Positions 36,919 through 44,748 of a DNA stretch of 64,000 nt are shown piece after piece. Where the stretch lies: NCBI GenBank assembly GCA_040217195.1, contig JAVJNR010000009.1, positions 160,001-224,000 of the forward strand. Direction: 5' to 3'. Position numbers and translations under genes: made by a program. This stretch comes from Leptospiraceae bacterium. Its GTDB lineage: Bacteria > Spirochaetota > Leptospiria > Leptospirales > Leptonemataceae. The notes beneath the pieces are model-generated. The model saw nothing but the letters and a program-made list of their open reading frames with translations. It was not told where the DNA came from and searched no databases. Position 1 is the first letter of the stretch; each line of letters begins with the position of its first letter.

Positions 36919-38007
36919 ATGTCATTTCGCAGCCGCGGCACAGCCTTCCTCTCCCATCCAGTGTATAACCTGTTCTCGGTGGCACTGACTTTTACCGGTA
37001 TTCTTCTATTATTAGGTACTGCCGTTGCAGACTTGAAATTAAGCACGGCCCAGTTGCTCAAGCATGCAGATATGCTCCTTTTGAGCCTCTTCTTTCTGGA
37101 AACACTGCTACGGATTATCTTTCAAAGAGGTCATTATGCACGCAGTTCCTTTGTGCTCGATGCCTGGGCCTTGCTTCCGCTTCCAATTGTATTTGGACTA
37201 AACATAGCCGCAGATGGGCCTGCAGACTATCCGCCAGGGTTATTATTACTGGAAGGTGGCCGGTTTTTGCGACTTGTGCCTGCTCTAAAATATTTCAGGC
37301 AGCAAAAGCAGGCTGGACTGAGGCCGGATTCATCGAGCACTCTGGACGGTCTGTCCCTGCGAACATCGCTGGTTGCATTTTTATTCCTATTTCTTGGAGG
37401 CCTGGCAACCAGTCATCTACACTCCAGGATGATTGAAAGCGAAACCAAGGTTAGAACGGAAACAGTTAAGAAATATGCCCAGGCCGAAGGCATTCAAAGG
37501 CTGCCATTTCTGATCCCGGAATGGATTATAGGCGTAGAAAAAGCAGGCTCAGACGGTGGTTTTGAAATCTATAATGTGCCCAAAGAGAAAATCAGCGAAG
37601 GCGATGAAGTAACCTATCGGTATGAGCGAGACTTCCTCTATTTACCCGGTCCAAATCCAGGAGAAGGCATCTATCTCAATTTGAAAGATCTACACAGAAG
37701 ACAGAAACTTCTGGAACTAATGATTCTAATTACCGGATTTGTCATGATTTCCGCTCTATTACTCACCAATAATACCTTCCTTATCCGAAAAGTCATTCGA
37801 CCGGTGGACCATGCAAGACGCGTGGCCCAGCTACGAATGGCAGGTGAGGAAATTCAGGATGAGCAGAAGGTTCCGGAAAACGAAGTGGGCCAGTACATAC
37901 TGGCTGCAAACGAACTCTACCAGGAACTTAGAGCACCGGCCATCAAACAAGATTCCACTGACAGCCGATCCGGCTGCCGGCTCCAGAAGCTATCGAATGG
38001 AGATTAG
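36919..38007 (+). CDS. Membrane protein with ion-transport (voltage-sensor-like) N-terminus and HAMP-like C-terminus
   Basis: FFLETLLRI, LDAWALLP, GRFLRLVPALKYFR; further TMs; VIRPV...NEVG HAMP pattern. Confidence 0.55.
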   Translation: MSFRSRGTAFLSHPVYNLFSVALTFTGILLLLGTAVADLKLSTAQLLKHADMLLLSLFFLETLLRIIFQRGHYARSSFVLDAWALLPLPIVFGLNIAADGPADYPPGLLLLEGGRFLRLVPALKYFRQQKQAGLRPDSSSTLDGLSLRTSLVAFLFLFLGGLATSHLHSRMIESETKVRTETVKKYAQAEGIQRLPFLIPEWIIGVEKAGSDGGFEIYNVPKEKISEGDEVTYRYERDFLYLPGPNPGEGIYLNLKDLHRRQKLLELMILITGFVMISALLLTNNTFLIRKVIRPVDHARRVAQLRMAGEEIQDEQKVPENEVGQYILAANELYQELRAPAIKQDSTDSRSGCRLQKLSNGD

Positions 38008-40521
38008 AGCCGGCACAATACCATCGCCCTTTTCATGGAACCCCAGAGATTTGGCAACAACGGATAATGCTGCATCGTTATCAGAGGCCTTCTCACAGCA
38101 ACCTGGCTGGTAGGATGAAATGAGAGAATCCCCGGGAACGATCTTGCCTGCCTCGGCCGAAACCCGGACCGAAGCTATGCCAAAAAAGGCTACCAGCTCC
38201 ATCCCTTCCGGTTTCTGTAAGCCGCTTCGATTATGAACCTCCGGAAGGTAATCCACCGGCGGGTTCAATATCATCGCAGCTTTTTCCACAATAACTCCAA
38301 TCACTCGACGACTGGCTTTCTGCGAACATCGAGCCAGAACCCCAGACTCATCTGTGGCAACCAGGACATCACCAATCCCCAGAACTTCATTCTGTCGAAC
38401 TGGCATGAAAGCAGCCACCGGAGCCTGCAGGCTTTCTCCGCTTTTGCCGGCAAAGATGGTGCCAGAGAATCGACTGAGCCCCTTAACCCATAAACCCAGG
38501 TCAGAAACCGGAAATCCCCGGTCATCATGTCCGCCGGCTATCAAAGAATAAAAACTTTCGGAAAGGAAGCGTCCGCCAGGACCGGAACCGGCTGCACCCC
38601 GGACCCCCTCCCCTTTTCTGGACAGACCCAGAAGGCCGGACTGTTCCCCATAGCCAAGCACGCCGTCACCCTCGGAACGGCCGGTAACACCGGATCCATC
38701 GCTCTTATTGACACCCTGCACTGGAGCATGCTCAACCGGAGGAGGCGAAACACTGTCATAGGATTTACCCATGGTGGACTCGATGCGAATCGTACCCGTA
38801 TGGCTGGAAAAATCATGCTCTCTGGCGGCATAATCATGCTCATGCTCCAGGGGCTTGCGCGAATCACTGAGTCGGGGATCCGTGGACTGAACCACATGAC
38901 CGGAAAGCACAGCTCCTTCCGGGGCCAGCTTTACAATTCCAGAATGATCCGATGTAGCCTGCTTGAGTCGTGCGTCCGACCCCTGCACCGCCACACCTTT
39001 CCTGGCCTCTCCATCGGATGCAAGTTCCACAATACCTGGAGTCTCTTCAGATGCCAGACGTAGCCTGGGATCACTTCCCTGAACCGCTGTTTCAGCCTCT
39101 GCTTCCCCGGCACGGGCAAATCGCATAATCCCCCTGGTTTCCGTTGTTGCATCCCGAAGCCGCGGATCGTTTCCCTGCACAGCTTCCGATGGCCGGTTCC
39201 CTCCTCCGGGAGAAAGACGCACGATACCGGAGGCCTTTTCCGAAGCATATTTTAGCCTGGAGTCATTACCCTGAACCACAACATTGGCTCTGTCTTCGCC
39301 ATCCTCGGCCAGCTCCACCAGACCAGGTCTTTCATCGGTGGCCGGTTTCAGACGATCATCATCGGCCTGAACTGCATGCAGGCCGCGTTCCTCTCCATTT
39401 CTGGCCAGTCGAACAATACCGGCCAGGTCCTCACTGGCAGGACGGAGCCTTCGGTCACTGCCCTGAACGGCAACCCCTTCACGATCCTCCCCATCAGATG
39501 CAAGCTCTACAATACCTTTGAAGTCTGTGGTAGCATCTCGCAACCTTCGATCACTACCCTGAATGACCACACCATCTCTGGCTTCTCCATCCAGCGCCAG
39601 CCGGACTATTCCGGACCTTAAAACGGAAGCATGCGGTATGGGCTCGGCGGGCAGAGTTCGATCCTGTTTCTCTACCGGGTCGGCGGAGGCAAATAGCTCC
39701 AGTTCGATGATCTGGGAAAGGAACTTCCCTTCTCTGGTTCGGGCACTTTCAAAGATTGTTATTTGAATGTAGCGTATATTTAAAGGAAGGAAACGCCATC
39801 TGTACCATTGCCCTGGCTCCGCAAGAAAGCCACTTTCTTCCATTAAGTGGTGCCAGGAAATATTGTCCTCACTATAGGAGATGTGGAACCCCTCGGGAAA
39901 AAGAGGATCCTCCCCGTCACGAGACAGAAGGCGAATTTCGCTTACCCGGTTTACGGAGCCCAGGTCCAGACGAATAAACTCATCCTCCTGACGGCTTCTC
40001 AGGGGACTTGACCAGCCATAATCAGTTCTCTGATCGATCAGGTTATCTTTTACCCACAGCCGGTCCAGCTCTCCAGACACCTGTACATCCACAATGCCGG
40101 AAACCATCACCCGGAAACTGCCGAAGGCTGAGATGTAGCCTTCTTCAGACTTCTTGTCTCGAATAAACAGAAACTTAATATAACGAGCTGTAATAAGAGG
40201 AAAGTTCCAGGTCATTACCTCCTTTCCTTCATGCCGAAAATCGGATTCTCTCAGAATAGGCTCCCAGACCTGACCGTCCTGAGAGATTTCGAACCTGAAA
40301 TTATCAGGAAATGCATTCTTATAATCCGGATGTTTCTCCAGCACGATTTGATTAAAGAAGATATCGTCGGTGAAGCTACCCATACAGGCCACGAGTCCGG
40401 GGATCTCGGATGCTTCGCTTACCCAGGATTTAACCCGACCCTCTTCAATCTCGCCGGTGCCTGGACCGGAGAAATCCTGGAACGGATAAATCTGCGGATG
40501 AGAAATTCGAATAGGTTTCAT
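37990..40521 (-). CDS. Discoidin (F5/8 type C) domain protein with eight ~32-aa phage tail-fibre-like repeats
   Basis: Two discoidin-like domains (FEISQDGQVW, IRLDLGS...YSEDNISW); repeats A(S/T)xxxxGIVxLAxxGE...VQGxDxRL; 4-bp overlap with rep stop. Confidence 0.8.
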   Translation of the reverse strand: MKPIRISHPQIYPFQDFSGPGTGEIEEGRVKSWVSEASEIPGLVACMGSFTDDIFFNQIVLEKHPDYKNAFPDNFRFEISQDGQVWEPILRESDFRHEGKEVMTWNFPLITARYIKFLFIRDKKSEEGYISAFGSFRVMVSGIVDVQVSGELDRLWVKDNLIDQRTDYGWSSPLRSRQEDEFIRLDLGSVNRVSEIRLLSRDGEDPLFPEGFHISYSEDNISWHHLMEESGFLAEPGQWYRWRFLPLNIRYIQITIFESARTREGKFLSQIIELELFASADPVEKQDRTLPAEPIPHASVLRSGIVRLALDGEARDGVVIQGSDRRLRDATTDFKGIVELASDGEDREGVAVQGSDRRLRPASEDLAGIVRLARNGEERGLHAVQADDDRLKPATDERPGLVELAEDGEDRANVVVQGNDSRLKYASEKASGIVRLSPGGGNRPSEAVQGNDPRLRDATTETRGIMRFARAGEAEAETAVQGSDPRLRLASEETPGIVELASDGEARKGVAVQGSDARLKQATSDHSGIVKLAPEGAVLSGHVVQSTDPRLSDSRKPLEHEHDYAAREHDFSSHTGTIRIESTMGKSYDSVSPPPVEHAPVQGVNKSDGSGVTGRSEGDGVLGYGEQSGLLGLSRKGEGVRGAAGSGPGGRFLSESFYSLIAGGHDDRGFPVSDLGLWVKGLSRFSGTIFAGKSGESLQAPVAAFMPVRQNEVLGIGDVLVATDESGVLARCSQKASRRVIGVIVEKAAMILNPPVDYLPEVHNRSGLQKPEGMELVAFFGIASVRVSAEAGKIVPGDSLISSYQPGCCEKASDNDAALSVVAKSLGFHEKGDGIVPALISIR

Positions 40522-41315
40522 ATCAGTTGATTCCAGTGTCTGTGGCGCTCCGTAGTAACGCCAGGTCTCTGTTCAGGTTCAAATAGAATTTGGTCGCATA
40601 TCTGCAATAGAATCGTCTTCAGGTACTCGGGAACTTCATCGCTAAGGCGAATCCAACCATTCTGCTCTCCCAGAAAGCATCCCTGCAACAATCCAAGGCT
40701 GCCGTCGGACATCTTCCCCCGGAGCTCATCCAGAACCTGATTCCAGGCCATTGGCCCAGTCCCTTGTTCGCGGGACAGGATTTTTTGAACATTCTCATTG
40801 GTGGGCGGGATTCCAGCCATCAAGCATTCGTTTCTGGCCTTGTCCCACTCCCCGGGTCTAGGTACTGGCTCTGATTGATTTTGTATGGATATATGGATCT
40901 GGTTGTACGCACCCTGCTCGGCTGCGCCTCTGAGAGTGCCCGGGTCGACGGGCTGAGGGGTCCTCTCGGCTTCCCGAGGGAGTTGTCTGTTCGCACCTCT
41001 CGGGGGTGCTCCATCGCCCTGCAGAGAGTCGAAAATGAAGTGGTATGTACTGTTTGTTCGGCCAGAACCCGTTCTGACTATGATCAGTCCGGCCTCCTGA
41101 AGCTCTTCTCGGGCTCTTCTAAGACTGGATTTCTGCTTAAAGCCAGTCAGTTCTAGTAGTCGGTTGGAGCCCGGAAAAACAGGCGAAAAATGCCGGTCCG
41201 AAAAACTTAAAAGGACCGGGTACAACGCTCTTGCGGCCGGGGATAGCCCGGCCCAGAGTCCAGATCGTATAATATCTGAAACAAACTTAAAATATTGCAG
41301 CTCATCTGCTGACAT
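40518..41315 (-). CDS. Winged-HTH replication initiator (Rep) candidate
   Basis: LSPAARALYPVL...FPGSNRLLELTG...SLRRAREELQEAGLI, an HTH_36-like fold typical of phage/plasmid initiators; downstream of parAB. Confidence 0.7.
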   Translation of the reverse strand: MSADELQYFKFVSDIIRSGLWAGLSPAARALYPVLLSFSDRHFSPVFPGSNRLLELTGFKQKSSLRRAREELQEAGLIIVRTGSGRTNSTYHFIFDSLQGDGAPPRGANRQLPREAERTPQPVDPGTLRGAAEQGAYNQIHISIQNQSEPVPRPGEWDKARNECLMAGIPPTNENVQKILSREQGTGPMAWNQVLDELRGKMSDGSLGLLQGCFLGEQNGWIRLSDEVPEYLKTILLQICDQILFEPEQRPGVTTERHRHWNQLI

Positions 41316-41357
41316 CTCGCCACCTCATCTGCTTGATGAGAGGCTCCCAAAAAAAGG

Positions 41358-41385
41358 TTGACATGCTCTATAATCAGGTCATTAT
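41358..41385 (+). promoter_or_regulatory. Antisense sigma70 promoter in rep leader
   Basis: TTGACA(41358-63)-N16-CATTAT(41380-85). Confidence 0.55.
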
Positions 41386-41390
41386 GTCGC

Positions 41391-41449
41391 CAACCATTCA
41401 TTCCCAATGGAAGCCCCAGCCCCTCAGATTCCTGAGGGGTATTTTTTTT
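41391..41449 (+). ncRNA. Putative counter-transcribed (antisense) RNA of rep, ~59 nt
   Basis: Own promoter; small stem ccatt/aatgg; terminator cccctcag-attc-ctgagggg followed by T8, oriented opposite to parB and rep. Confidence 0.6.
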
Positions 41450-41482
41450 GCGCTTTTATATTTTTATGAGACGCGCGACTGG

Positions 41483-41510
41483 ATTATGTCGCATAACCTA
41501 CATCTGTCAA
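41483..41510 (-). promoter_or_regulatory. Sigma70 promoter for rep
   Basis: Minus strand TTGACA(41510-05)-N16-CATAAT(41488-83), overlapped by TTATGTCGCATAA. Confidence 0.6.
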
Positions 41511-41527
41511 GTACTTTAAAGTACGTA

Positions 41528-42379
41528 TCAATTCGGGGTGTGCTGGATATTCTTCTTTAGCCAGTTCTCCAGGCTGCGTGCAGAGCGCGCATCCCCGGCA
41601 TCGATTGTGATGACGCTGCCCTTGCGGGTTATGGTTCGCTCACTGGTGCTGGCTGGTTTTTGCGGTGAAACGTGGCTGGATTTCTTGCTTTCGCTGGAGG
41701 GTTGAGTCTCCGAGTCGGCTTCTTTCTGTTCATCGGAAAAGAACTCTCTTGCGGAGCGGACTGTGCGGATAGACCCGGTTTCGTAGGCCGATAGAAACTC
41801 ATTGAATCGATTCTTTCTGTGGGCCTGGACGGCCTGGATGAGGAGGTTCTTATTTTCCAGCCCCGCTTCTCTGCAGCGACGAGCCGCATCCGCTGGAAGG
41901 CCCGCGATTCCCAGGATCTCTGTAATGTAATTTCTTGATTTCCCTACAAGCTGAGCCAGTTCGGCATCGGAGTAGCTTTCCTGTTGCTTCAACCTGAGGA
42001 GCGCTTCCGCCTCTTCTTGAGCGGAAAGATTTTCTCGCTGAAGGTTCTCAATAATAGCAATTCGGTAATAATCCCGCTCTTCCCGGGAAATAATTCTGCA
42101 TTCTGCTTCTTTCCAGCCCAGTCGGTTCAGGGCATGAAATCGGCGTTCTCCGGCAATGATTCGGTACCCCTCCCCTGCTCTGGTTACAACAATGGGAGAC
42201 AGGAGGCCGTCTTTCTTGATGCTTTCTGCCAGCTCGTCGACCCCAAGGGTTCGGTCCTTACGGGGCTGCTCCTCGGAAGGATGGATGCGGTCCAGTCGGA
42301 TCCGGGTTATGGTGCCATCCAGGGACTCGGCCTGAAAAATATCGGCCAGGGTACCCAGCTTTTTATGTTTCGAGCTCAC
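41528..42379 (-). CDS. parB: ParB/Spo0J partition protein
   Basis: QPRK, LAESIKKDGLLSPI, IAGERRFHA, IENLQRENL, HTH; probable GTG start at 42379. Confidence 0.95.
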   Translation of the reverse strand: MSSKHKKLGTLADIFQAESLDGTITRIRLDRIHPSEEQPRKDRTLGVDELAESIKKDGLLSPIVVTRAGEGYRIIAGERRFHALNRLGWKEAECRIISREERDYYRIAIIENLQRENLSAQEEAEALLRLKQQESYSDAELAQLVGKSRNYITEILGIAGLPADAARRCREAGLENKNLLIQAVQAHRKNRFNEFLSAYETGSIRTVRSAREFFSDEQKEADSETQPSSESKKSSHVSPQKPASTSERTITRKGSVITIDAGDARSARSLENWLKKNIQHTPN

Positions 42380-43118
42380 GTAGAAGTTCCTCCAGGAAGT
42401 CCGAGTATTCTTTAGCCTGCTTGGATTCTGGAGCATAGTCAAAAATGCTCTTTCTTGCCAGGTGACTTTCTCCAATGGCAACGCCGGCGCTGATGTTGGA
42501 TTCGAATACATGAAAGAACTGGGATACCACTGGAAGGATGGTTTTGGTCAGCACGGTCTTGGCCTTGATCTGGGTTACTACGGCGCCGGCCACTTGCAAC
42601 TCCGGGTTGATTCGGCGCTTGATGCTGTTGATTGTCGTTTGAAGGCCGGTCATTCCATCAATGGAGAATTTCTCGGCCTGGGCCGGAACCACAACGTGAG
42701 TGGCGGCCACCAGGGCATTTACCGTGAAGATCGAAAGGCTTGGCGGACAATCGATGATAATGAATTCATAGTCTCCTACAGATTGCAGCGCATCCCGCAG
42801 GATGTACGGTGCATCCACGTTCTGGCCCATGGACTCAACCTCGGCCAGAGTGATTTTGGATGGAGCGAGCCAGAGATTTGGCTCGCCAGTTTCAATCACT
42901 GCATCCTTCAGTGCCCGGCCCTGGCTGAAAACATTGTACAGGGTCACATCCAGGCTGTCCGGATTTGCGAATAATCCGGTAGTGTTGGCCTGCGGATCCA
43001 TATCCACCAGCAACGTTTTCTTTTCTTTCTTTGCGAGCCCAAAGGCCAGGTTAATGGCGGTGGTGGTTTTGCCTTCTCCGCCTTTCTGGTTTGTGATCGC
43101 TATGATTCTGGTTTTCAC
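42363..43118 (-). CDS. parA: ParA/Soj ATPase
   Basis: NQKGGEGKTTT, DMDPQAN, IIDCPPSL; probable GTG start at 43118. Confidence 0.96.
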   Translation of the reverse strand: MKTRIIAITNQKGGEGKTTTAINLAFGLAKKEKKTLLVDMDPQANTTGLFANPDSLDVTLYNVFSQGRALKDAVIETGEPNLWLAPSKITLAEVESMGQNVDAPYILRDALQSVGDYEFIIIDCPPSLSIFTVNALVAATHVVVPAQAEKFSIDGMTGLQTTINSIKRRINPELQVAGAVVTQIKAKTVLTKTILPVVSQFFHVFESNISAGVAIGESHLARKSIFDYAPESKQAKEYSDFLEELLRELET

Positions 43119-43201
43119 AATTAATGCGACATAATAATAAGGAAGCATTTTTTCAAGAAACTTTTAATTGCGGATGAAAAAATCGCAAAACTCGGCTGAG
43201 T

Positions 43202-43479: not shown

Positions 43480-44748
43480 ATGGCTGAGCAGGAATTGCTA
43501 AATAGGCTTCTAGGCGGATCGTATCGCTCGGGCTTTCTTTCGGCCCTGGGGGATCAGTACAGTTATGTGCTCTTTGGCAGGCGCTCGGGGGCTTTTGCCC
43601 CGGTTCAGGGGCTCCCTGGTGCCGAGGCTGGAAAGCGCTATGGCTTTCTCCAGTCTGATCCGGCTCGGTGGGATCAGGCCCGCCGTCAGGGGTATCAGAC
43701 GATTCCCGGAAGCCTTGTGGGTCTTCCTGGTCGGGATGTTTTCGTGGGCGTTCAGGGCGGTGCCAGCGTGGAGCATCTTCTGGTGGTGGATGCCCCGGAA
43801 GGGACTCTGCCTTCGCCTGAGTTTTTGCAGCTGCTGTTTCTGGCGGAGCTGGGAGCTCAAGAAGGAGGAGCGGACCCGGTGGATCTGCCTGTCTGGCTTG
43901 AGGATTCCCTGTCATATTTAATGCGAGTTCCATCTCCGATTCTCATTCTGTCCGAGCCTGGCTCTGCCGCCGAGCTCCTGGTGCAGGCGCTTGTGGATGG
44001 CCGCTTTGGCATGGACGATACTGTGTTTTTCCATCCCGGCCGTCTGTCCGAAGAGGTGCAGCTCAGAGAATTTTTCGGGGACCAGGCAAGCGCCCGCCTG
44101 GGGGATGCCTCGGTGGTGCCTGTGCTGGAGCGCGGTGCCCGGGCCATCATTATCGATGAGGTGTCTGATCTTTCCCAGTCCATGCAATTGAGAATACTGG
44201 CCCTGCTCTCGGATCCGGATAGCCCTGTGTCCTGGATCTTTACCAGCTCCAGGGATCTGGGGGCCATGGCTGAGGCCGGTCGTTTCCAGCCAGCTCTGCT
44301 GCGCGCGATTCGGGAAGGTGAGCTGTTGCTTGCTCCGGTGCGAAACCAGCGAGACAGAATTCCAGAGGAAGCGGAGAGGTTGCTTCGGATGTTTCGGCGG
44401 CAGTTTGGTCGCAATATCACTGTGACCGGGGAGGCCCTGGAGGCTCTGCGAGGGTACGATTGGCCAGGAAACTGGCAGGAGTTTCGGGACACTTTGAAAT
44501 CTGCATTTCTTTTATGTCCTGGGTCCGAGCTCAGACGGGTGGATCTGCAATTCGGCAACTGGAACCAGGGGCAGGCCGATGATCTGAATCTTCGCCACCG
44601 TACCGCGGAGCTGGAGAAATCTCTGTTATTGCAGGCCTATGCATTACATGGTGGCAATCAGGTGCAGATGGCCCGGGCGCTGGGGATCTCCCGGGGGTCT
44701 CTTCAATACAGAATGAATAAGCTTGGCCTTGGTGGAAGAGAAGAGTGA
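43480..44748 (+). CDS. Degenerate sigma54-activator-like AAA+ protein with Fis-type HTH
   Basis: IIDEV, QLRIL, YDWPGN, GNQVQMARALGISRGSLQYRM; Walker A and GAFTGA degenerate. Confidence 0.8.
   Translation: MAEQELLNRLLGGSYRSGFLSALGDQYSYVLFGRRSGAFAPVQGLPGAEAGKRYGFLQSDPARWDQARRQGYQTIPGSLVGLPGRDVFVGVQGGASVEHLLVVDAPEGTLPSPEFLQLLFLAELGAQEGGADPVDLPVWLEDSLSYLMRVPSPILILSEPGSAAELLVQALVDGRFGMDDTVFFHPGRLSEEVQLREFFGDQASARLGDASVVPVLERGARAIIIDEVSDLSQSMQLRILALLSDPDSPVSWIFTSSRDLGAMAEAGRFQPALLRAIREGELLLAPVRNQRDRIPEEAERLLRMFRRQFGRNITVTGEALEALRGYDWPGNWQEFRDTLKSAFLLCPGSELRRVDLQFGNWNQGQADDLNLRHRTAELEKSLLLQAYALHGGNQVQMARALGISRGSLQYRMNKLGLGGREE

Follow-up and report, generated by a model that had tools for sequence, protein, structure and literature searches.

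The parA-parB-rep locus described here raises the question of how synthesis of a replication initiator is held in check on the second replicon of a spirochete. The locus lies within a 64-kb stretch of DNA (64,000 nucleotides; hereafter the window), for which a reading of the sequence alone had proposed that a short RNA, transcribed against the rep leader, controls copy number or incompatibility. The contig containing the window as its positions 160,001–224,000 (C8, 234 kb) had overlapping ends and was thus a circular second replicon; it held the genome's only tblastn matches to thrS and metF. At the locus the gene order was parA-parB-rep, all on the minus strand: parA (longest ORF 42363–43148, with a probable GTG start near 43118; AAA_31, E = 1e-51), parB (longest ORF 41528–42511, the true start probably being later; ParB_N and HTH_ParB) and rep (40518–41315), a putative chromosome II initiator of 265 aa (Pfam HTH_36, E = 3.5e-8). 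The cumulative GC-skew minimum of C8 fell at 201,432, i.e., at 41,432 in the window and within the rep leader, in a trough about 4 kb wide (199.6–203.5 kb of C8) that spanned rep, its leader and parAB.

Homologues of Rep were present in 54 of 61 relatives and, in a sample from the whole class, in 128 of 151 genomes. Among the relatives, parB was upstream in 53 of the 54 loci, the remaining locus being interrupted by a contig end. In four near-complete genomes the homologue lay some 2 kb into C2, and an HTH protein on two L. interrogans replicons (350–394 kb) showed 44% identity over 55% of the query. The origin of L. biflexa chromosome II has been described as a partition operon with a putative rep gene downstream (PMC2229662); in the available text of that 2008 genome paper, a role for Rep in cII replication was proposed, and only parAB and the putative rep were named. 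Given the circularity of C8, its sole thrS and metF genes, the Rep homologues on named replicons and this description of the origin, the replicon was therefore read as chromosome II of a Leptospirales bacterium. The HTH_36 protein would be its initiator, judging from its position and from the rep regions of related Leptospira plasmids, which drive autonomous replication (PMC4338851).

The predicted structure of Rep (model pLDDT 74) consisted of an N-terminal winged helix (HTH_36), a low-confidence linker and small C-terminal domains. A Foldseek search returned no match at E ≤ 0.001 and barely covered the C-terminal half; the best matches to the N-terminal domain were weak (E about 0.01–0.02, Z 8.3) and tied with other winged helices. 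The top matches included entries titled as an initiator or a Rep-DNA complex (4pt7, 4pta and 5kbj), which we take to be staphylococcal RepA. No phage homologue of Rep was found.

The antisense unit was located on the plus strand, opposite parB and rep, where the sequence-only reading had put it. Its promoter, of the sigma70 type, TTGACA-N16-CATTAT (41358–41385; TTGACA at 41358–41363, CATTAT at 41380–41385), agreed with the consensus at 10 of 12 positions. The transcription start was set at 41391 by the register of a published start site, which is the 34th base counted from TTGACA, giving a predicted counter-transcribed RNA of 59 nt (41391–41449, plus strand) with a single-stranded 5' tail, a weak UUCC-CAAU-GGAA stem (41401–41412) and an intrinsic terminator. 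The strong terminator that had been claimed was also in place (41419–41449, plus strand): a 9-bp stem at 41419–41440 with a 4-nt loop, then TA and a T8 run (41442–41449), the arms of which covary across relatives. On the minus strand, the predicted rep promoter was confirmed as TTGACA-N16-CATAAT (41483–41510; 11 of 12 consensus positions), with a predicted leader of about 161 nt that encloses the antisense unit. The 5' end of the antisense RNA lay 76 nt upstream of the rep ATG and did not overlap the ribosome-binding site.

The 59-nt RNA (41391–41449) folded at -20.1 kcal/mol (z = -3.67), and none of 200 shuffled sequences did as well. The small ccatt/aatgg stem of the earlier reading was present (41394–41398 with 41406–41410), but it was weak (-2.6 kcal/mol, equalled by 16% of shuffles) and its register was not conserved, occurring in 7 of 42 distinct RNAs; the UUCC-N4-GGAA stem could pair in 32 of the 42 and corresponded to the alignment-consensus register. 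In a scan for local patterns, 3 promoter-like sites were found against 1.0 ± 1.0 expected, which is weak evidence alone, and 3 terminator-like sites against 2.1 ± 1.5, which is near chance; it is through conservation, rather than local pattern counts, that the unit stands out from chance. Two other readings of the sequence were discarded. As had been argued from T-tract polarity, the T-run is on the wrong strand to terminate parB, and a same-strand unit was absent from all of 37 loci. Nor does any plus-strand gene end at the unit, as had also been said: a 75-aa ORF (41333–41560) runs straight through it, and its frame gave 14–105 aa in 5 loci of the same genus, so that a small plus-strand gene was not kept.

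Conservation was assessed with a fixed rule, requiring, on the strand that faces rep, TTGAC and then a hairpin and T-run. By this rule the unit was found upstream of rep in 53 of the relatives' 54 Rep loci, and the 54th had a unit with a broken T-run, recovered under a looser T-run rule. Among 37 further loci, picked mostly where the RNA model was blank or weak and not at random, the unit occurred in 31 (two being identical in sequence), compared with none on the rep strand and none in 370 shuffles. Of the six misses, two had a unit further upstream, in three the conserved promoter and 5' part could be made out by eye, and the sixth (L081, G112:C30) had none. This last locus has a Rep homologue, and its leader keeps the upstream promoter and motif without an antisense unit by the rules used; it is possibly a natural loss. 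Across the class, the terminator was placed 81–106 nt from the antisense -35, a near-fixed distance. TTGAC was invariant in 40 aligned units (selected on TTGAC), and the predicted RNA was 48–72 nt long, with a median of 59 (42 distinct RNAs).

A covariance model built from 42 RNAs among these loci, where kin are not independent, matched 53 of the 61 relatives and none of the 7 genomes without this Rep. At E < 1e-5 the model also picked out 97 genomes of the 151 sampled from the class, and the 68 strong matches in newly sampled genomes all lay on the strand opposite to rep, 95–108 nt upstream of the gene. The search for covarying stems across the parB-rep gaps of relatives, which the sequence-only reading had put forward as a check, revealed compensatory changes in the terminator stem: 96.9% of cells were paired, with two-sided changes at 7 of 8 pairs and a covariation of 0.42 against at most 0.13 in slid controls, values that come from a model-fitted alignment biased towards structure and from kin that are not independent. 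The terminator arms varied from CCCCTGG to GGGCATG and GGGGAAA; a locus' own arms paired at 6.6 of 7 positions, while swapped arms paired at 3.4. The RNA could not be assigned to a known family: the best Rfam match for the window was suhB (15.9 bits where 41 are needed, E = 2.4), and there were no matches at E ≤ 1 in 9 loci. Comparative sequence evidence of this kind indicates that the antisense unit is a real element, and class-wide.

Some variation among loci was seen in passing. In L031–L033 and L043, 6 nt separate inverted GACATAA copies in the spacer of the antisense promoter; these are reverse-complemented in L033 relative to L031 and L032, and the L043 variant is similar to that of L033, a pattern such as is left by micro-inversion. 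In L031–L053, the bases preceding the terminator hairpin could pair with those immediately beyond the T-run to give an outer stem, whose sequence differs among genera (by eye and by folds); lying outside the 59-nt RNA, it would be part of the rep leader or of a read-through RNA. Seven relatives (G002, G008, G020, G024, G031, G033 and G036) had neither Rep nor an RNA match, including one of the same genus with 94% completeness, and may be without a second chromosome. Two Rep copies were present in two genomes (G075:C1, 12312–13092 and 35793–36573; G083, C102 and C22), which may reflect assembly duplication; both G075 copies had an antisense match.

The genes flanking the locus encode a discoidin (F5/8 type C) repeat protein after rep (37990–40521) and a sigma54-activator-like protein divergent from parA (43480–44748). 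Both neighbours were also retained in L063 (NC_018021.1), a 25-kb replicon named as a Turneriella parva plasmid, which carries genes for a Fis-type regulator, parA, parB, rep and a discoidin protein, and has an antisense unit with a different terminator sequence. The presence of this cassette on a 25-kb plasmid means that the cII replicon exists also in the form of a small plasmid. A third replicon, L060 (G000:C9; 82 kb, circular, 53% GC), has parA and a divergent HTH_36 gene; the interval separating the two genes contains two GACATAA motifs, and the search there gave no antisense unit.

Transcription of the homologous unit was evident in published data from two Leptospira species. Among the starts in Table 4 of a dRNA-seq study of L. 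interrogans is tss_25063, an orphan on the minus strand at 727700, in the gap separating parB from an HTH gene; its coverage, 11.4, is equal to that of the parA primary start (PMC5243855). The sequence upstream of tss_25063 holds a homologous promoter, and the start is the 34th base from TTGACA, corresponding to 41391 in the window; start-site calling in that study was permissive, with identifiers beyond 25,000. Table 9 assigns two antisense sRNAs to tss_25063, sRNA_30_210 (727459–727653) and sRNA_37_152 (727496–727614), and sense sRNAs to a start at 727450 (PMC5243855), which lies behind TTGACA-17-TTTAAT, the homologue of the rep promoter. In L. borgpetersenii, JB_C2_N05 is a minus-strand RNA at positions 1982–1882 of chromosome 2, constitutively expressed at 214–474 normalised counts in all 16 samples, with homologues in 951 of 1054 Leptospira accessions (PMC13224635); it contains the hairpin and T-run of the antisense unit. 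These three RNAs were found in supplementary tables only, anonymous and without a link to replication, and JB_C2_N05 is not named in the available main text of PMC13224635.

All three published antisense RNAs overran the T-tract, by 59 nt in JB_C2_N05 and to 727459–727496 in L. interrogans, and all three omitted the 5' end; the short 3' end is absent from the published extents. A search of the published sRNA supplements with the 5' motif accordingly gave no match, since the catalogued RNAs lack that end. The L. interrogans library was fragmented and selected at 150 bp (PMC5243855), which would under-represent a 60-nt species and may explain the long ends. The sequence-only reading had made itself depend on there being a transcript and on retention of promoter and terminator by relatives; an antisense start exists in two Leptospira species, and the unit is kept. 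An antisense RNA in the rep leader is consequently supported by conserved promoter, spacing and terminator, by one-to-one co-occurrence with Rep and by transcription in two species, and the element is very likely transcribed in the organism of the window too.

Folding of the leader suggested how such an RNA could act. Three segments on the minus strand are concerned: A, GGGGCTTCC (41409–41417), inside the antisense target; B (41335–41348), the switch, whose predicted partner is A in the ON state and C in the OFF state; and C (41319–41329), which contains the Shine-Dalgarno sequence GAGGTG (41326–41321) and forms the 3' arm of the OFF hairpin. In the free leader, where the antisense RNA is absent, GGGGCTTCC of A (41417–41409) paired with GGGAGCCTC of B (41348–41340). 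The duplex was mimicked by holding the antisense target unpaired during folding, and when the target was blocked in this way B paired with C (41329–41319), and in the complete leader of the window the Shine-Dalgarno sequence then cost 11.9 kcal/mol to open, up from 5.9. A shorter window model gave a rise from 8.4 to 11.8 kcal/mol, which none of 10 shuffles reached. The Shine-Dalgarno sequence of the window is partly paired even without the RNA (5.9–8.4 kcal/mol).

The opening cost rose by more than 1 kcal/mol in 37 of 53 loci. Loci of two families, f1 and f2, and 30 further loci were each compared with 10 shuffles of the B region; the rise exceeded every shuffle at 22 of 24 f2, 13 of 28 f1 and 12 of the 30 further loci (1 in 11 being expected by chance), with median rises for f2, f1 and further loci of 4.3, 2.9 and 2.2 kcal/mol against 0.0, 0.7 and 0.3 for shuffles. 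In 9 of 28 f1 loci, 2 of 24 f2 loci and 11 of the 30 others the change stayed below 1 kcal/mol; one in three distant loci shows no switch. The folding tests excluded L025, which has no unit by the strict rule, and the shuffle test excluded L026, with its long leader, and one duplicate. Equivalent pairings were made by different sequences, GGGGCTTC with GAAGCCCC in f1 and CCCGAAG with CTTCGG in f2, and B and C changed together among f2 loci (e.g., L035 compared with L037). A locus' own B:C pairing ranked in the best 10% of foreign B segments at 25 of 78 loci, and A:B at 14 of 78, which is modest. As predicted by these folds, therefore, the switch is clear in Leptospira and the window's genus and patchy in distant relatives, and translational attenuation is the best predicted reading for the window genome and Leptospira.

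Two other devices in the leader were set aside. A leader peptide with translational coupling did not fit, as upstream ATGs had no constant frame or stop relative to rep across 83 loci; f2 loci share a 6-codon ORF, which is caused by invariant sequence. An attenuator formed from the GGTTGGC/GTCAACC stem and a U7 run gave z = 0.12, and the U-tract was not conserved.

Further elements common to the promoters of the locus were apparent. The motif GCGACATAAT lay over the -10/+1 of the antisense promoter (41381–41390, minus strand), where it is a candidate site for a DNA-binding protein, with a second copy on the rep promoter -10 (41483–41492, minus strand) and a third on the parA promoter (43126–43135, plus strand). 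A longer form of the motif, AATG[ACT]GACATAAT, was present on all three promoters of the replicon and at least once in 49 of 52 parB-rep gaps. It occurred 29 times genome-wide against 0.18 expected under an order-4 Markov model, often as same-direction tandem arrays in intergenic positions at a spacing of 29–81 nt, the main chromosome included (e.g., L055:2124–2528, L056:2130–2238, L057:2170–2583, L058:2190–2351 and L059:2290–2356). A parS or replicon-specific iteron was not favoured, as the 66 copies of GCGACATAAT were spread over all 10 contigs; copies adjoin genes such as those for ribosomal S2 and S4, a chaperonin and FliP. The published LexA consensus, CTnnACnnnnGTnnAG, did not fit when compared by eye, and a literature search by title found nothing on AATG[ACT]GACATAAT. 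The longer form is likely, on its distribution, to be a candidate site of a global regulator rather than parS. Two GTAC sites lie directly upstream of the rep -35 (41511–41524). Two sites in 212 nt are unremarkable alone, being found in 8% of genome windows; across 52 parB-rep gaps there were 152 GTAC sites against 38 expected from the flanks, roughly a fourfold excess, with at least two sites in 45 of the gaps. GTAC is methylated in L. interrogans, a modification attributed by prediction to an orphan methylase that is ubiquitous in Leptospira (PMC7708080). As inputs to replicon control, both the motif and GTAC are leads only.

The mechanism that best accounts for these observations as a whole, with a probability of about 0.6, is an antisense RNA coupled to a translational switch on the initiator gene. 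The antisense promoter and terminator would yield an RNA of about 59 nt that limits initiator synthesis. In the free leader, pairing of A with B would weaken the hairpin over the Shine-Dalgarno sequence and leave rep ON; on pairing of the antisense RNA with its target, including A, B would be released to form the B:C hairpin and bury the ribosome-binding site. By analogy with plasmid systems, the level of the RNA would track replicon dosage and so provide negative feedback, holding the second chromosome at roughly the copy number of the main one; in L. biflexa the large replicon and the chromosome are maintained at a ratio of about 1:1 (PMC13342612, a 2026 survey). The motif shared by the parA, rep and antisense promoters, and the clustered GTAC sites, would be candidate protein and methylation inputs. 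It is likely that the antisense element represses rep, with sequestration of the Shine-Dalgarno sequence as the probable means; copy-number or incompatibility control by the antisense RNA would be its putative role.

Three other explanations were considered. The antisense promoter opposes the rep promoter at a distance of 125 nt, and with a leaky terminator, collision or occlusion could dampen rep in cis, the RNA being secondary. The published antisense extents do overrun the terminator, coming within about 10 nt of the rep start in L. interrogans (727459 against 727450), both promoters bear the same motif, and the switch signal is weak in distant relatives. Against convergent transcription are a covarying terminator maintained 81–106 nt from the -35 throughout the class, a conserved 5' transcribed part, and A:B and B:C complementarity preserved with different sequences in two families, and it is regarded as unlikely. 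The conserved block might instead function mainly as DNA, as part of an origin or an operator array, with the short transcript incidental or an aid to origin opening. Consistent with this, the GC-skew minimum and the cluster of GTAC sites are here, and the 5' part, which belongs to inverted repeats around the GACATAA motif, is better conserved than is usual for a cis-antisense RNA. Yet the skew trough, at about 4 kb, takes in rep and parAB as well, and a stem that changes sequence while keeping its pairing, next to a strand-specific T-run, behaves as an RNA terminator; a role at the DNA level is very improbable.

Premature termination is the mode of action of repABC RepE and pT181 RNAI. Antisense pairing could act in this way at rep, or through cleavage of the duplex by RNase III, rather than by blocking translation. 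The sense sRNAs of L. interrogans end at 727652–727656, inside the duplex region, with extra 5' ends at 727651 and 727681, and the rep strand of the window has a U7 run (41350–41356). Nevertheless, there is no U-run after the predicted OFF hairpin in the window, the U7 lacks conservation (of 83 loci, 25 are T-rich over the 12 nt that follow the -35, 24 are A-rich and 34 mixed), and the ends of the sense sRNAs coincide with the start of the rep 5'UTR assigned by the pipeline, which may make them bookkeeping. Termination or cleavage is accordingly judged distinctly unlikely, and the translational switch is preferred.

A likeness to the repABC ctRNAs had been suggested from sequence, and this was borne out for layout and size and not for membership, the initiator not being RepC and the predicted output being different. 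The repABC ctRNA, found in Alphaproteobacteria, is RepE of pTiR10, IncA of pSymA and inc-alpha of p42d (PMC6090056). Both systems have the order parA-parB-rep, an antisense RNA (about 50 nt in repABC) with a terminator in the parB-rep gap, refolding of the mRNA near the initiator ribosome site by binding upstream (predicted here), use by chromids, and methylase target sites at the control region, GANTC in repABC and GTAC here (PMC6090056). They differ in the initiator, which is HTH_36 in 41 of 41 aligned members, RP-C being matched by 1 of 41 at E = 0.0088 and not by the window protein. The Leptospirales RNA matches no curated ctRNA family in Rfam, rep has its own promoter behind parB, and the host is a spirochete. 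The predicted output is Shine-Dalgarno sequestration rather than a new terminator; in the window, on folding only, no U-run follows the predicted OFF hairpin. The repABC origin is inside the initiator gene; the skew trough here, some 4 kb wide, includes rep together with its leader and parAB.

In its predicted output, the system is closer to RNAI of the staphylococcal plasmid pSK41, which is likewise antisense to a rep leader, some 100 nt before the start, and which has been proposed to induce a hairpin sequestering the RBS (PMC5703833); here that hairpin is predicted in the window and in 22 of 24 f2 loci, and more weakly elsewhere. In both, pairing is upstream of the RBS and not over it (+1 being 76 nt before the ATG in the window). 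The likeness of Rep to RepA_N is in the N-terminal fold, at a weak winged-helix level, and the RepA_N Pfam domain was matched in 0 of 41 Reps. At about 59 nt, and with a single strong stem, the RNA is shorter than RNAI (83 nt), and the unit resides on an essential second chromosome directly behind parAB. The Leptospira replicons LE1, p74, LaiGI and lcp1-3 also have parAB followed by an HTH rep, and rep regions of this type replicate autonomously and show incompatibility (PMC2229662, PMC4338851). In four rep leaders of other types and the 82-kb circular C9, the antisense unit was found in 0 of 5 by the rule used, with the GACATAA motif present. The anonymous Leptospira sRNAs (PMC5243855, PMC13224635) share locus, strand and homologous sequence with the antisense RNA and differ in their longer ends. 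The system would therefore resemble the repABC ctRNA in its arrangement and size, and pSK41 RNAI in its predicted effect, while falling outside both groups.

A search within the open-access literature found no antisense or ctRNA role at the origin of Leptospira chromosome II, nor any description of plasmid-style antisense control of an initiator for spirochetes. A 2018 review of chromids discusses ctRNA for Alphaproteobacteria and has Leptospira once in its available text (PMC6090056), and the 2026 survey, in its available text, reports the 1:1 ratio and is silent on antisense regulation (PMC13342612). The coordination of chromosomes II and I in Leptospira was unexplained in the literature found, and the antisense unit offers a concrete regulator, promoter, target and set of three leader segments. 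It also provides a candidate function for Leptospira sRNAs that are already catalogued, and defines an RNA family that Rfam does not contain. That initiators can be under antisense control is textbook knowledge; what is surprising is the lineage and the essential replicon, not the class of mechanism. These results suggest that, beyond the Alphaproteobacteria too, a second chromosome came under antisense control. More tentatively, and with less than even likelihood, all leptospires, including the pathogens, may control chromosome II by an ancient, class-wide antisense switch on a non-RepC initiator, tied to the cell cycle through a global DNA-binding protein (at the AATG[ACT]GACATAAT sites of the three replicon promoters and of the main-chromosome arrays) and GTAC methylation. 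If true, this would be a third design for the control of chromids, beside Vibrio iterons and repABC, and one reached independently.
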